DNA of 64,000 nucleotides. It comes from a virus. Of the stretch, positions 2,901 through 46,840 are shown one piece after another (the first letter of the stretch is position 1; the number at the start of each line of letters is the position of its first letter). A program made the translations under genes and the position numbers. The stretch lies in IMG/VR virus record IMGVR_UViG_3300046501_000132, positions 96,001 through 160,000 of that record. One strand, 5' to 3'. The notes under the pieces are model-generated. The model saw nothing but the letters and a program-made list of their open reading frames with translations. It was not told the DNA's origin and did no database searches.

Positions 2901-3353
2901 ATGTCGGCAGTAGCAATAGTAGGCTCGAATGCAAAAGGGGATCAAGTGATCCCCTTTTTGGTTGAGGTAGAGTTAGTAAGTGCTAACTTCTTAGCGGTGA
3001 AGGAATCGCTTGAGAGGATTGGCCTGCCTGGGAAGCCGAATGATATTGACGGATTCCCGACTCTACATCAAACCTGTCATATTCTATACAAGCGAGGTCG
3101 ATACTATATCTGCCACTATAAGCATCTATTCGCCCTAGATGGAAAGGATACGACGCTGAGTAGGGCGGATATTGCTAGACAGAATACAATCATTGCCCTA
3201 CTAGAAGAATGGGGATTGATTCGTGTGGTAAGTCCGATGATGATTCAGAAACCGACTTGTTCATTGAGGACTTTGAAGGTAGTTAAACACAAGGAAAGGC
3301 ATGAATGGAAATTTGTTAGCCGATATGATCTTGGATCCCAGCGAAACGTATAA
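2901..3353 (+). CDS. regA: translational repressor RegA
   Basis: 'FL.VKESLERIG...LHQTCHIL.KRGRYYI.HYK.LFALDG' RegA signature; synteny 45-44-62-regA. Confidence 0.93.
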   Translation: MSAVAIVGSNAKGDQVIPFLVEVELVSANFLAVKESLERIGLPGKPNDIDGFPTLHQTCHILYKRGRYYICHYKHLFALDGKDTTLSRADIARQNTIIALLEEWGLIRVVSPMMIQKPTCSLRTLKVVKHKERHEWKFVSRYDLGSQRNV

Positions 3354-3657
3354 CAAGATCAAGAGGTATGATGGAGATTTGTCGGATGGCGAAATTCGAG
3401 CGGAAGGTTATAAGTGGTCTGTTTGTCCAAATACGTTTGAATTCGACCAAGGCGACTTTGTGGACTTCTGTCGTGCACTAATTATGAAGCACGAACAGAA
3501 GCGCGGTGAGGTTGTAATCACTTCGACTCGCAGTGGTGAGCCGCTGGTTGTGACTCGCCAGAATGAGGAAGGGCAGATTGTGAAGGTTATTTGGGAGAAG
3601 AACCACCCGCAACCTTCACTGTTGGATAGAGTAAGGAGCAACTATGACTACGAGTAA
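3325..3657 (+). CDS. hypothetical protein
   Basis: ORF packs between regA and 3644; start uncertain (3301 or 3325). Confidence 0.6.
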   Translation: MILDPSETYNKIKRYDGDLSDGEIRAEGYKWSVCPNTFEFDQGDFVDFCRALIMKHEQKRGEVVITSTRSGEPLVVTRQNEEGQIVKVIWEKNHPQPSLLDRVRSNYDYE

Positions 3658-3961
3658 TAAGCTAACCGCCGCTCAAGAAGAACGGCTGACGTTGCTGATT
3701 GAGGAATGTTCTGAAGTGATTAAATGCGCAACGAAGGTGCTGCGCTTTGGTTATGATTCGATCAATCCTTATGCGCCACAGGATGGGACAAATCTGAATC
3801 AGCTACAGCTTGAACTGGGCGATCTATTCGCTATCAAGCGTCTGATGGCCAATAATGAAGATATTGATGTAAAGGCAATTGCTGGACGAGCAGTTTCCAA
3901 ATATAATAAACTACATACGTATCTACGTCAACAACACAACTTTGAAGGAAGCGATAAGTAA
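3644..3961 (+). CDS. MazG-like all-alpha NTP pyrophosphatase
   Basis: 'LIEECSEVIK...ELGDL' EExxE...ExxD motif. Confidence 0.7.
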   Translation: MTTSNKLTAAQEERLTLLIEECSEVIKCATKVLRFGYDSINPYAPQDGTNLNQLQLELGDLFAIKRLMANNEDIDVKAIAGRAVSKYNKLHTYLRQQHNFEGSDK

Positions 3962-4512
3962 TGATCAGTATGTTTCAAGCAGTAAGCGATTTGAATGTAG
4001 CCTATGGTAATTCTAAGGGCGATCCGACTAATCCGGATTGGGCGCGACTGGAGAGTCAAGCCAAGAATATTCTGGACGAATACAACGAACTGATGGATGA
4101 TGGTATCTCGGTCAAGAATATCACTGAGGTCCGTGATGCCATCTGCGACATTCTCGTATTCACTCTTGGTCTAGCGCATATGGCTGGTCTTCCGGTTGAA
4201 GAAGATATGGAAGCGGTGGATGCTTCGAATCGTACCAAGTTCTGCCGGAATAATGATGAGCTGGGTCAGACCGCTGCGAAGTATCGTGATCTGGGAGTTG
4301 AGGTCTACGTAGAAGGTTCGTTCCCTTCGATGCGGGTCAAATCTCTGAAAGATCAAGTTGGTTTAGATGGTAAGAACTATCCCGCTAACAAGATGCTGAA
4401 GTCTGTGGCATTTGTTGAGCCGATGCTCAAGCCTCTGGTTTCGTCGTTTGATCTCAACAAAGTCCTGGATGAAGTAGAAGCCGGGGCTGAGTTGCATCCT
4501 CTGGTGGTATGA
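3961..4512 (+). CDS. MazG/PRA-PH-like NTP pyrophosphohydrolase
   Basis: 'DEYNEL...EVRDAICDILVF...V..SNRTK' and 'K.LKS..F.EP' motifs. Confidence 0.75.
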   Translation: MISMFQAVSDLNVAYGNSKGDPTNPDWARLESQAKNILDEYNELMDDGISVKNITEVRDAICDILVFTLGLAHMAGLPVEEDMEAVDASNRTKFCRNNDELGQTAAKYRDLGVEVYVEGSFPSMRVKSLKDQVGLDGKNYPANKMLKSVAFVEPMLKPLVSSFDLNKVLDEVEAGAELHPLVV

Positions 4513-4625
4513 CGCGAATCGACCTTGATAAGAACAACCGAATGCTCCGCATCGGCTTCGGTAAGAATGAAGGTCGATGGTTCTTTCGCGTTGACCTTTG
4601 GTTCGTAGGTTTCCGACTGAGTTGA
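4509..4625 (+). CDS. small hypothetical protein (38 aa, MTRIDLDKNN...)
   Basis: ATGA overlap with the upstream stop and TGATG overlap with the downstream start. Confidence 0.6.
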   Translation: MTRIDLDKNNRMLRIGFGKNEGRWFFRVDLWFVGFRLS

Positions 4626-4894
4626 TGGCACCAGATAAAGGACTATCATCAAGTTTCCGTAGGAACGTTCCAGAAGACCGGAACAAGTCCTACGGCTGGA
4701 AGACTCCAGCAGAGCAGTGGCCTGGATTAGATTTCTCCTGGTATCGTCAGCAACAGGTGGGGGTGCCGCTGTTCTGGATGCCTGTGATGACAATTATTCC
4801 GACTTCAGTGGCCAGCGAGTTTATAGGCGTTCAACCTTTGGCGGAACCAATGGGTTTAATATTCTCAATGAGGATGAATTATGAAGACAAGTAA
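4625..4894 (+). CDS. small protein with a C-terminal major-capsid (gp23 Gol-region)-like segment
   Basis: 'IPTSVASEFIGVQPLAEPMGLIFSMRMNY' aligns without gaps to gp23 'IPNLIAFDICGVQPMNSPTGQVFALRAVY'; TGATG-coupled start. Confidence 0.7.
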   Translation: MAPDKGLSSSFRRNVPEDRNKSYGWKTPAEQWPGLDFSWYRQQQVGVPLFWMPVMTIIPTSVASEFIGVQPLAEPMGLIFSMRMNYEDK

Positions 4895-5405
4895 GCAGTG
4901 GTGGCAAGAAACGAAGACTGATTCAGCAAAGTTGAATGCTTGGCTCCTGAAGCAATATACCGGTGAAGTGACAGCAGCGCAGCGTATCCTGGATTTGCGG
5001 GATAAATTCAAAGCGATAGGTAGTGATCACAAGATTCTGACCTTTATTGCAAACCAGGAACAGAAACACGCCATGTGGATTCTGGAACTGCTTCAGAATC
5101 GCGGTATTGAACCTGAGATCGGTGATCCTAATAAGAGATACTGGAAGGAAACTCTACAAGGCATCGAAGACCTGGAAACTGGTGCTGCGGTTGGCGCTCA
5201 CGCCGAAGCGATGCGGTTGGATCGGATTCGTGAGATTGCTTATGATGTAACAGCCCCTCATGATATTGTGACCAAGTTCAGCAAAATCCTAATTGATGAG
5301 ATTGGGCACGAGAAGATGTTTCGCAAGCTATCGTCGCCAGAAGCCTTGGAGGCGACGCGAGCGAATCATGAATCAGGAGCCGCTGCTTTGGGTCTGGTAT
5401 CCTAA
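4881..5405 (+). CDS. ferritin-like di-iron protein
   Basis: E...QEQKH...E...DEIGH paired ExxH motifs of four-helix ferritin-like fold. Confidence 0.75.
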   Translation: MKTSKQWWQETKTDSAKLNAWLLKQYTGEVTAAQRILDLRDKFKAIGSDHKILTFIANQEQKHAMWILELLQNRGIEPEIGDPNKRYWKETLQGIEDLETGAAVGAHAEAMRLDRIREIAYDVTAPHDIVTKFSKILIDEIGHEKMFRKLSSPEALEATRANHESGAAALGLVS

Positions 5406-45399: not shown

Positions 45400-45726
45400 T
45401 TTGCCTCTTTTAACTTGATAACTCTCATCGTAGATCCATCGTTCCCTCAGGTTTTGCTCCTTGGTGATAAATCTACAATTTCCCACACGATAAACGCCTT
45501 CATCCCGATACCTTCCGAGTTGGTAAGAATCGGGTTCCAATCCAATTTGGTTCGCTCGCGTCAACCCGGCATCTACAGCTAACCGGGTGTACTGCTCAAA
45601 CGTCAACTCACATTGTCTCTGGAGCCTAACTGCTCGTGCCTTTAGGTTTTGCCAATTCTTTAACCAGGCACGCAGTTCGCTAGGATCCAGTCCAATGACT
45701 TTTAGATAGTTTTCACGAGCATCCAT
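45400..45726 (-). mobile_element. degenerate HNH-like endonuclease domain, in frame with the dNMP kinase
   Basis: 'W..LKARA......ELTFE.Y', 'R..D.G.Y.VGNCRFIT..QN..E'; no stop before kinase. Confidence 0.55.
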
Positions 45727-45754
45727 CAACGCCTTGACCTCAGCCCGTTTCAAC

Positions 45755-46840
45755 TTACACCTCGATGTCGAATTTGCGGAATGAAGACAACTCGATGGCT
45801 CGAACCAATTCAACCGGGGCTTCAGTCAGATCAACAACCGCACTCAACTCAACACCCCGCTTCGCGGCGATATAATGAGCAACGAGTTGTGCATACACCC
45901 ACATCAGGTTATTTTCAAGCGGAACGTTGTATTCCAAGAAGGTATGACCCAGATGAGAGATAATCGTGCTCAGAATGAACTCAGGCTCATCGGTCGTGAT
46001 CGCTTCGATATATTGAGCAACCAGATCGCTGAAGAAAGCCTTCCATAGTCGAATCTCAGGGCCGATTAGCGGAACATCACTCTCATCATACGAATTCGTA
46101 TAGTTGGCGGAGATTTCGGTTGCATCATCCGCTTGACCCCGCGAAAAGTCGTATAGGTGGGCATTCGTCACGTGCCAGCGATATGGGCCCAGCTTCAGTT
46201 GAGGGCTGCTCTTCTTGATCTCGTTGTACATCAACTCGTGAAGGAACGAGAACTCAAATGGATTGATCGAGCCGGTACCAAAGATGATGTCGCCACTTCG
46301 CTGAATCACCTTAGTACAGAATTGATCTTCGCCTTCAACGTAGAAGTTGATACCCAAGTTACAGGGTCGATCCTTACCCAGTTCTCCGAAGCCGAACCGC
46401 TCTTCAATTGCCTTGGTCGAATCCTTATGAAGATCATGAATCGTCACATACGCACGGCGGGTATATAGACTATCTCGGATGAACAGATCGGGGATAGACA
46501 CCAACTGATTCTCATCATAGAATCGCGGGCCATAGGCACCGCTCCAAGTCTCACCATCATCCGAATACTGAGGCGCACGCGGGAGGAAGAAAGACAAGTA
46601 AGGATTCACACGATCATCACCGGCCATAACCCAGAAAGTCTCCGCGATTAGAGCGAAGATATTGGATTTGCGACCTTCAAGGTGTAGATGTCGGGATCGG
46701 GGATTGCCTAGCTCAAACGTTACGTCAAAGATAGACGTGCAACCACCGTTACGGGAAGGGCGATAATGGCCCTCATTGATAATTGTATTGAATGCTTCTA
46801 GAACAACTTGTGAAACGGTCCTGCCTCTTACCAGGTGCAT
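45755..46840 (-). CDS. thymidylate-synthase-family enzyme, probable dUMP hydroxymethylase
   Basis: 'YSDDG', 'GAYGPR', 'TRRA', 'PCN', 'QRSGDIIFG...N', 'HLYD'; Asn at the pyrimidine-specificity position. Confidence 0.8.
   Translation of the reverse strand: MHLVRGRTVSQVVLEAFNTIINEGHYRPSRNGGCTSIFDVTFELGNPRSRHLHLEGRKSNIFALIAETFWVMAGDDRVNPYLSFFLPRAPQYSDDGETWSGAYGPRFYDENQLVSIPDLFIRDSLYTRRAYVTIHDLHKDSTKAIEERFGFGELGKDRPCNLGINFYVEGEDQFCTKVIQRSGDIIFGTGSINPFEFSFLHELMYNEIKKSSPQLKLGPYRWHVTNAHLYDFSRGQADDATEISANYTNSYDESDVPLIGPEIRLWKAFFSDLVAQYIEAITTDEPEFILSTIISHLGHTFLEYNVPLENNLMWVYAQLVAHYIAAKRGVELSAVVDLTEAPVELVRAIELSSFRKFDIEV

Follow-up and report, generated by a model that had tools for sequence, protein, structure and literature searches.

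We report a small gene in a T4-type soil phage genome that encodes a free-standing homologue of gp23's Gol segment (gp23 being the major capsid protein), joined to a novel N-terminal motif, with purifying selection on both parts. The gene (hereafter the mini-gene) lies in a 64,000-nucleotide (nt) stretch (the window), comprising bases 96001-160000 of the 170,684-base-pair (bp) IMG/VR virus record IMGVR_UViG_3300046501_000132, and its product is the 89-amino-acid (aa) protein P0001. Positions without a prefix refer to the window, L-numbers to fetched homologue loci and P-numbers to proteins. The Gol stretch is the textbook phage peptide read by a bacterial suicide system, and a phage cannot easily mutate it because no other part of the T4-type capsid protein is so well conserved. 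A separate Gol copy that is kept by selection and made before the capsid protein would give an experimental handle on why the Gol region binds EF-Tu at all and on how phages cope with sensors of invariant structural motifs.

Profile searches indicated that the resemblance to the gp23 Gol segment is true homology. Residues 57-88 of P0001 matched positions 15-46 of the Pfam Gp23 profile (PF07068) with an E-value of 4.1e-6 and 26.9 bits, above the curated cut-off of 24.4, and P0001 also matched PHROG 138 (major head protein; E 2.6e-6). A search of the PDB with a profile of four family members returned T4 gp23 as the sole match (E 3e-5), with residues 48-89 of the mini-protein aligned to residues 93-134 of T4 gp23 (full-length PDB chain 6uzc_a). 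The preliminary description of this DNA had reported 14 of 39 ungapped identities to a T4 gp23 string, and had suggested a search with a gp23-family hidden Markov model. The count was the same on recounting (mini-protein residues 48-86 against T4 93-131), the T4 string given there is letter-perfect against gp23 in PDB chains 6uzc_a and 5vf3_A, and the suggested model match is the significant Pfam one given above.

When all six frames of the complete genome were searched with the Gp23 profile, three places were found: the true gp23 (E 1e-126), the mini-gene (E 1.4e-8), and a weak third. The resident gp23 (P0003, 431 aa, genome positions 45463-46758) is complete, matching Pfam Gp23 positions 1-375. 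Its identity to the capsid proteins of two cultured relatives is 65% for Ralstonia phage RSP15 and 60% for Delftia phage PhiW-14. This gp23 is encoded about 55 kb from the mini-gene, which confirms that the latter is far from the head genes. BLASTP aligned P0001 to this gp23 with 18 of 41 residues identical (E 2e-8).

The mini-protein is not a capsid protein, because less than one-tenth of the 376-position PF07068 profile is matched (positions 15-46 only) and no fold is predicted. It shares this significant local match with the capsid proteins of PF07068 and PHROG 138 but differs from them in having no P-domain, A-domain, or insertion domain and in being predicted to be disordered. An AlphaFold2 model built from an 11-sequence family alignment had a predicted local distance difference test score (pLDDT) of 52 and a predicted template modeling score (pTM) of 0.17, with no stable elements in residues 48-89, and the ESM Atlas model of the identical sequence had a pLDDT of 0.33. 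Neither model shows a capsid-subunit fold, and we rejected a folded domain. These low values argue for a peptide-type ligand rather than a fold, and the protein is best described, on the basis of the models, as two conserved linear motifs on a chain predicted to be disordered. In an AlphaFold2 monomer of the resident gp23 (31 sequences, pTM 0.65), the first half of the Gol equivalent forms two short helices (residues 69-82 and 84-88, pLDDT about 72-77), and the second half lacks a confident model. T4-type internal or packaged proteins carry an N-terminal targeting peptide that ends in a prohead-protease L/I-x-E site. None of the family members has such a site within residues 1-20.

Protein searches, both word-indexed and exhaustive, covered 5.8 billion cluster representatives and 1.8 billion representatives at 50% identity and revealed about ten sequence clusters that share the mini-protein design: P0004-P0011, P0012 (truncated at its N-terminus), and P0013 (more distant). 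They match the family profile with E-values of 1e-15 to 1e-46, and their carriers are uncultured T4-type phages. The design consists of an N-terminal motif (N-motif), a variable linker, and a C-terminal Gol-like segment in about 90-135 aa (alignments A3 and A4). The N-motif has the consensus Ala-Pro-x-Lys/Arg-Gly-Leu-Ser-Ser, followed by Trp..Pro....Pro, with invariant or near-invariant columns in both alignments. Overall identity between members is 30-60%. Start, length, and stop position are conserved across the clusters, and most members stop a few residues past the R..Y of the capsid-like segment. Members P0007, P0010, and P0013, together with a chimeric protein described below (P0029), match the last 30 positions of the 128-position PHROG 12830, which is labeled 'major head protein' by similarity only. 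Since these members match the end of that profile, deposited phage genomes seem to include short proteins that end in the Gol stretch. P0001 had no match to PHROG 12830 at E-values up to 1.

The N-motif showed no similarity to any known family in Pfam or PHROG. No second copy was detected in six frames of the genome, where the next best match had an E-value of 0.08, and we therefore rejected its derivation from another protein of the same phage. As the motif is single-copy in the genome, the mini-gene does not belong to an array of genes sharing this N-terminal 'handle'. The exhaustive profile search found no case of the N-motif without the Gol-like segment or fused to other modules.

Selection was measured as the ratio of nonsynonymous to synonymous substitution rates (dN/dS; Nei-Gojobori) among the four context-A genes (defined below), with synonymous sites near saturation, so that the values are rough while their ranking is consistent. 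The whole mini-gene had a dN/dS of 0.10-0.28, and its two flanking genes had 0.06-0.17. By part, the N-motif had values of 0.04-0.15, the linker about 0.7-1.9, and the Gol-like segment 0.08-0.37, which amounts to purifying selection on both motifs and a linker that drifts freely. Relative to L004, L012, and L009, most substitutions are at third codon positions, and they include a synonymous double change of CGG to AGA. The most constrained part of the mini-protein is thus the novel N-motif, which is absent from the preliminary description, rather than the Gol-like segment.

Across the family, the Gol-like segment has the conserved core P..L...[ED]..GVQP[ML]..P..L.F..R..Y. Pro(-10), VQP, Asp/Glu(-4), Gly(-1), and Met/Leu(+1) are kept in all members, and Leu(-8) is usual. 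Every member retains most of the [DE]..G.VQP[ML] core. What all members have in common is the segment's first half, [basic][basic]..P.L...[DE]...VQP[ML], with the basic pair present in most only. We take this retained half to be the Gol core rather than a structural strand. The P..GL.F..R..Y part that follows, which corresponds to a beta-strand, was replaced or lost in P0006, P0010, and P0011. Positions -14 and -13 are basic in most members (RR, RH, RQ, KK, and VK), and Met-Thr is peculiar to the phage of P0001. The idea that exchanging the two arginines of T4 for Met-Thr makes a non-activating variant therefore does not generalize to the family.

The Gol-like part of the mini-protein evolves far faster than the Gol segment of gp23 itself. 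In the clade of the resident gp23, the Gol stretch is essentially invariant among proteins that are 77-96% identical overall, whereas the context-A mini-proteins are just about 50% identical across their Gol-like stretch. This difference would fit an arms race or a different constraint. Of 37 aligned positions, P0001 shares 15 with its own gp23, 16 with the context-B (G001-type) gp23, and 13 with T4 gp23; the context-B mini-protein P0010 (from G001) shares 14 with its own gp23 and 17 with that of T4. By eye, P0001 resembles its own gp23 around VQP, where both have Glu-Phe and Leu, but the matrix shows no preference. We thus rejected the idea that the mini-protein tracks its own gp23 by gene conversion or co-evolution, a comparison that rests on two independent genome pairs only.

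The mini-gene occurs in two unrelated contexts, both of which are runs of small non-late genes. In context A (the window, L004, L012, and L013) the order is regA, MazG, MazG-like, a 38-aa open reading frame (ORF), the mini-gene, a rubrerythrin-like gene, and a ParB-like gene. In context B (L009, L010, L015, L020, and L021) it lies in a run of small + strand genes between a gp5-like spike gene and a baseplate cluster. No late-promoter-like CTAAATA or TATAAATA was found within 4 kb upstream of the mini-gene at the five loci checked, and the nearest such motif in the window is downstream, at 5402. We therefore rejected late expression. The most distant member, P0013, has 134 aa with a 30-residue N-terminal extension and was found on L017 and its JGI twin. 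Its gene directly follows that of a 206-aa protein, with whose stop it overlaps. This 206-aa protein has a weak Sigma70_r2 match and may be a gp55-like late sigma factor.

Among 50,697 cultured phage records, tblastn with P0001 and with two further capsid-fragment proteins (P0018 and P0020, described below) found practically only full-length capsid genes (1844 places in 1840 records). RSP15 and PhiW-14 had one Gp23-like place each in this search, with no copy of the mini-gene found. A 'hypothetical' match in RsoM2USA was rejected as a free-standing copy, as it is that phage's 411-aa capsid gene. An IMG/VR scan added just two contigs to the family, and scans with the downstream neighbor gene recovered no additional family loci. 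As regards the survey of T4-like genomes for short ORFs with this segment that the preliminary description had proposed, the searches gave about ten clusters in uncultured phages and practically only full-length capsid genes in cultured ones. The mini-gene is a rare, patchy accessory gene of uncultured T4-type phages, as follows from its two contexts, its few clusters, and the single capsid place in cultured relatives.

Among the matches of the exhaustive search were also small ORFs, complete and internal, in which unrelated N-termini precede this capsid stretch (P0018, P0020, and P0029). P0018 (78 aa) and P0020 (63 aa) are encoded within runs of tightly packed small genes. On the contig of P0020 (Logan SRR29299497), 19 ORFs of 39-92 aa follow one another closely in the same direction. 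Pfam Gp23 is matched by two of them (79 aa and 63 aa), and the run looks like an array of mini-genes. P0029 (394 aa; L018:5001-6185, + strand) comes from another T4-type phage, was found on three contigs, and lies between dNMP kinase and endonuclease genes. It combines a Portal_T4 piece (residues 142-181, Pfam E 5e-10) with a gp23 Gol piece (residues 305-346, E 5e-19). A second capsid-fragment gene is present in the genome of P0001 itself, outside the window (161 aa; genome 168759-169244, - strand, equal to L003:1498-1983). The last 26 residues of its product are 50% identical (13/26) to the conserved C-terminal block of the resident gp23, and the protein ends right after them. This tail had a BLASTP E-value of 3e-5 in a small database and matched Pfam Gp23 positions 322-348 with an E-value of 0.12; the N-terminal 130 residues had no Pfam or PHROG match. 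Like these genes, the mini-gene is a small non-late gene that joins a 'handle' to a highly conserved block of a core virion protein.

In T4, the Gol region has been described as the most conserved part of gp23, and a free Gol peptide of 29 residues binds domains II and III of EF-Tu and enables Lit to cut EF-Tu (PMC3014915). Gol bound to EF-Tu-GDP also inhibits the EF-Tu GTPase (PMC3014915). Both Lit and CapRel read the capsid protein via short motifs (bioRxiv 10.64898/2026.01.04.697583). The mini-protein resembles T4 Gol in its homologous stretch, with the P..L...[DE]..GVQP core retained, and the published action of Gol as a short free peptide would suit a disordered mini-protein. It differs in that Gol is internal to a 521-aa late structural protein, whereas here the stretch is in a separate non-late gene, fused to a novel N-motif. 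In addition, the two arginines of T4 are Met-Thr in P0001.

Our tentative first choice, held with limited confidence, is that the mini-protein may act as a competitor or decoy towards the reader of the Gol core in nascent gp23, either EF-Tu or a motif-reading sensor. It is ranked first because EF-Tu is the only demonstrated ligand of the free Gol stretch and Lit its only demonstrated reader. A disordered accessory protein with two motifs would be made before the late genes, with a C-terminal motif that copies the gp23 Gol core. It would then occupy, on EF-Tu or on a host sensor, the site otherwise taken by the Gol segment of nascent gp23. The invariant N-motif could add a second contact that makes the complex unproductive, and late capsid synthesis would trigger the abortive response less or not at all. 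What the analysis shows is the homology, the selection, the predicted disorder, the non-late accessory context, and the recurrent design; the binding steps and the direction of their effect are our inference. Selection on both motifs but not on the linker supports the decoy reading, as does the presence of a patchy accessory gene in two unrelated contexts. The recurrence of the same capsid stretch behind unrelated N-termini, together with the second gp23-block gene in the genome, also supports it.

Several points weigh against a decoy. The free T4 Gol peptide is an activator of Lit and not a blocker (PMC3014915), and an early Gol copy could therefore harm the phage rather than protect it unless altered. 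If the sensor is tuned to the capsid of this phage, its decoy might be expected to follow changes in that capsid, but the Gol-like segment is no nearer to its own gp23 (15/37 identities) than to a foreign one (16/37). The N-motif is more constrained than the mimic part, and the main activity may lie there.

If the decoy reading is true, the mini-protein would belong to a new anti-defense class, peptide mimics of the phage's own virion proteins, which would also offer a route to the target sensors. If it is wrong, the family still marks a function tied to the capsid N-arm. It is conceivable, though doubtful, that a general counter-immunity strategy of phages is at work, in which disordered mini-proteins made before the late phase display the least mutable virion peptides together with a handle and so blind motif-reading sensors. 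The displayed peptides would be the Gol core here and the C-terminal capsid block or a portal stem piece elsewhere, and the blinded sensors would be Lit-like or CapRel-like, possibly with EF-Tu as co-receptor.

Our full-text literature search found no description of free-standing Gol genes. We rate the design of the mini-gene as outside the described kinds. The nearest comparison for the decoy reading is the small phage anti-defense protein DSAD1, which competes with a structural trigger and reportedly is not a fragment of that trigger. DSAD1 engages a virion-protein sensor, the tail-tube sensor DSR2, and thus follows the same logic as our proposal, but its mechanism has been demonstrated and that of the mini-protein is a proposal (PMC11087589). 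Engineered dominant-negative fragments likewise reproduce a native interface and titrate the partner, but they are laboratory constructs of bacterial proteins, whereas the mini-gene is natural, under selection, and equipped with an added conserved motif (PMC9245647; PMC10769210).

A different explanation, which we regard as doubtful but worth weighing first, is exaptation: the capsid-derived stretch would serve as a generic helix or hydrophobic element and the activity would reside in the N-motif, with no mimicry of gp23. The stronger constraint on the N-motif (dN/dS of 0.04-0.15, against 0.08-0.37 for the Gol-like part), the replaced second half of the capsid-like segment in three members, and the absence of tracking of the own gp23 speak for this explanation. 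However, Pro(-10), VQP, and most of the [DE]..G.VQP[ML] core persist in every member at only 30-60% overall identity. The Gol stretch was also captured independently behind unrelated N-termini, which is hard to explain without a specific role.

The mini-protein could instead help in head morphogenesis, a reading that we consider rather improbable. It would bind the partners of the gp23 N-arm (the scaffold core, the portal whiskers, the chaperonin, or a neighboring gp23) and time or tune prohead assembly or gp23 folding. In T4, genes 31 and 40 code for small helpers of head assembly and lie outside the late head cluster, and P0029 joins a portal piece to a Gol piece. In the unexpanded T4 head, gp23 residues 66-105 are disordered and face the scaffold, and order begins at L106. 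Head length is changed by A94V and by G97S, and once the head has expanded, Met98 anchors the portal whiskers (PMC9546572). A core assembly factor should, however, be widespread and slowly evolving, whereas the mini-gene is patchy, was not found in cultured relatives, and evolves fast next to an invariant gp23 segment. Its position in accessory gene runs at two unrelated sites, with no late promoter motif upstream, also speaks against a role in head assembly.

We consider it unlikely that the mini-protein takes over EF-Tu for purposes other than defense, with the Gol-like motif docking on EF-Tu and the N-motif recruiting or modifying so as to retune early translation. The inhibition of the EF-Tu GTPase by bound Gol (PMC3014915) would provide for such an effect, and in the window the mini-gene follows the translational repressor gene regA in one operon-like run. 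The regA neighborhood is not conserved, however, as context B lies between spike and baseplate genes, and EF-Tu is so abundant that stoichiometric inhibition by a small accessory protein seems costly. The N-motif, moreover, resembles neither EF-Tu nor any known family. Lit cleaves EF-Tu at Gly59-Ile60, and by eye the N-motif recalls the Lit-cut switch-I loop (AP[DE]..K..G[IL][ST]); a pseudo-substrate copy of this loop was rejected, as hmmsearch against E. coli EF-Tu gave no match.

Less probable again is a weapon between phages, i.e. a capsid fragment that poisons the head assembly of co-infecting T4-type competitors. Protein fragments can inhibit the interactions of their parents in a dominant-negative manner (PMC9245647), the gene is accessory and patchy, and all T4-type capsid proteins conserve the stretch that it copies. 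By the same conservation, the resident gp23 should be just as sensitive. No feature that would confer self-immunity was found, and resident and foreign gp23 are at the same distance from the mini-protein.

Finally, a non-functional remnant of gene 23 recombination or duplication that is still open by chance is very improbable: the gene is short and only about 35 residues of gp23 are matched, but dN/dS is 0.10-0.28 with near-saturated synonymous change, and start, length, stop, and the start/stop overlaps with the neighbors are conserved. The mini-gene is ancient yet intact, because its product (15/37) and T4 gp23 (17/37) are equally far from the resident gp23. We rejected this reading on dN/dS and the conserved gene boundaries; the neutral decay that the preliminary description had named as a refuting outcome is contradicted by these values and by a design that is kept in about ten clusters. 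An RNA element in place of a gene was rejected as well. Rfam gave no match at E-values up to 1 and a tRNA scan found none. Several frames are open at this place in the window and it contains an 8-bp hairpin, which is not conserved in relatives and is lost in L004, and substitutions follow codon position.

The features of the locus are listed in the table below. The stop codon of the mini-gene is TAA at 4892-4894, and its start codon (ATG, 4625-4627) shares one A with the TGA (4623-4625) of the upstream ORF. This one-base overlap, together with the Pfam and PHROG matches of the regA and MazG neighbors, corroborates the translational coupling in a regA/MazG run that had been described from the sequence.

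Table. Features of the mini-gene and its surroundings in the window.
Feature	Position	Strand	Basis or remark
Mini-gene, P0001, 89 aa	4625..4894	+	ATG-started ORF (ORF list and translation); homologues begin at the same Met-Ala-Pro; third-position substitutions; dN/dS 0.10-0.28
N-terminal motif, residues 1-34	4625..4726	+	APDKGLSSSF... then W..P....P; family signature
Variable linker, residues 35-50	4727..4774	+	no conserved columns; dN/dS about 0.7-1.9 where measurable
gp23 Gol-like segment, residues 51-86	4775..4882	+	equivalent to T4 gp23 about 96-131
Pfam Gp23 match, residues 57-88	4793-4888	+	within/around the Gol-like segment
Upstream 38-aa ORF (P0002)	4509..4625	+	PHROG 38838, E 4e-11
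Ferritin/rubrerythrin-like gene, 174 aa	4881..5405	+	Pfam Rubrerythrin, E 3e-8
regA	2901-3353	+	Pfam Translat_reg, E 1e-26
118-aa protein without assigned function, between regA and MazG		+	co-directional run 2901..4512
MazG	3644-3961	+	Pfam/PHROG matches
MazG-like pyrophosphatase	3961-4512	+	Pfam/PHROG matches
ParB/ddrB-like protein, 150 aa	5440-5892	+	matches part of the large PHROG 2859 profile

Downstream, the rubrerythrin-like gene starts 14 nt before the stop of the mini-gene, an overlap that is also present in L004 and L013. The C-terminal Glu-Asp-Lys common to the context-A mini-proteins is dual-coded with the conserved N-terminus of the rubrerythrin-like gene product. This product is a MiaE-like four-helix protein, and its gene and the ParB/ddrB-like gene are 70-90% identical in L004 and L013. 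No + strand terminator-like sites were found between 403 and 6036, and scans for sigma-70 promoters and terminators gave no signal above that of shuffled sequence. A CTAAATA motif is conserved directly after the rubrerythrin-like gene (window 5402, L004:6790, and L013:6781), about 35 nt before the ParB-like gene, and is possibly a late or middle promoter element. The genome has 20 CTAAATA sites on the + strand and 7 on the - strand.

Upstream, the ATG of P0002 overlaps the stop of the MazG-like gene. P0002 has conserved counterparts in L004 and L013 and a truncated one in L012, and the changes between the window and L004 are mostly synonymous. P0002 is independent of the mini-gene. P0002-type proteins were found in 56 cultured phage records at 51-76% identity, and those records have no second Gp23-like place. 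The carriers of P0002 include phiKZ-like Pseudomonas jumbo phages, vB_PpS_SYP, uncultured phages of 636 kb, and Ralstonia phage RSP15, in which the homologue is unannotated and lies inside a tRNA cluster (L029:3495-3620).

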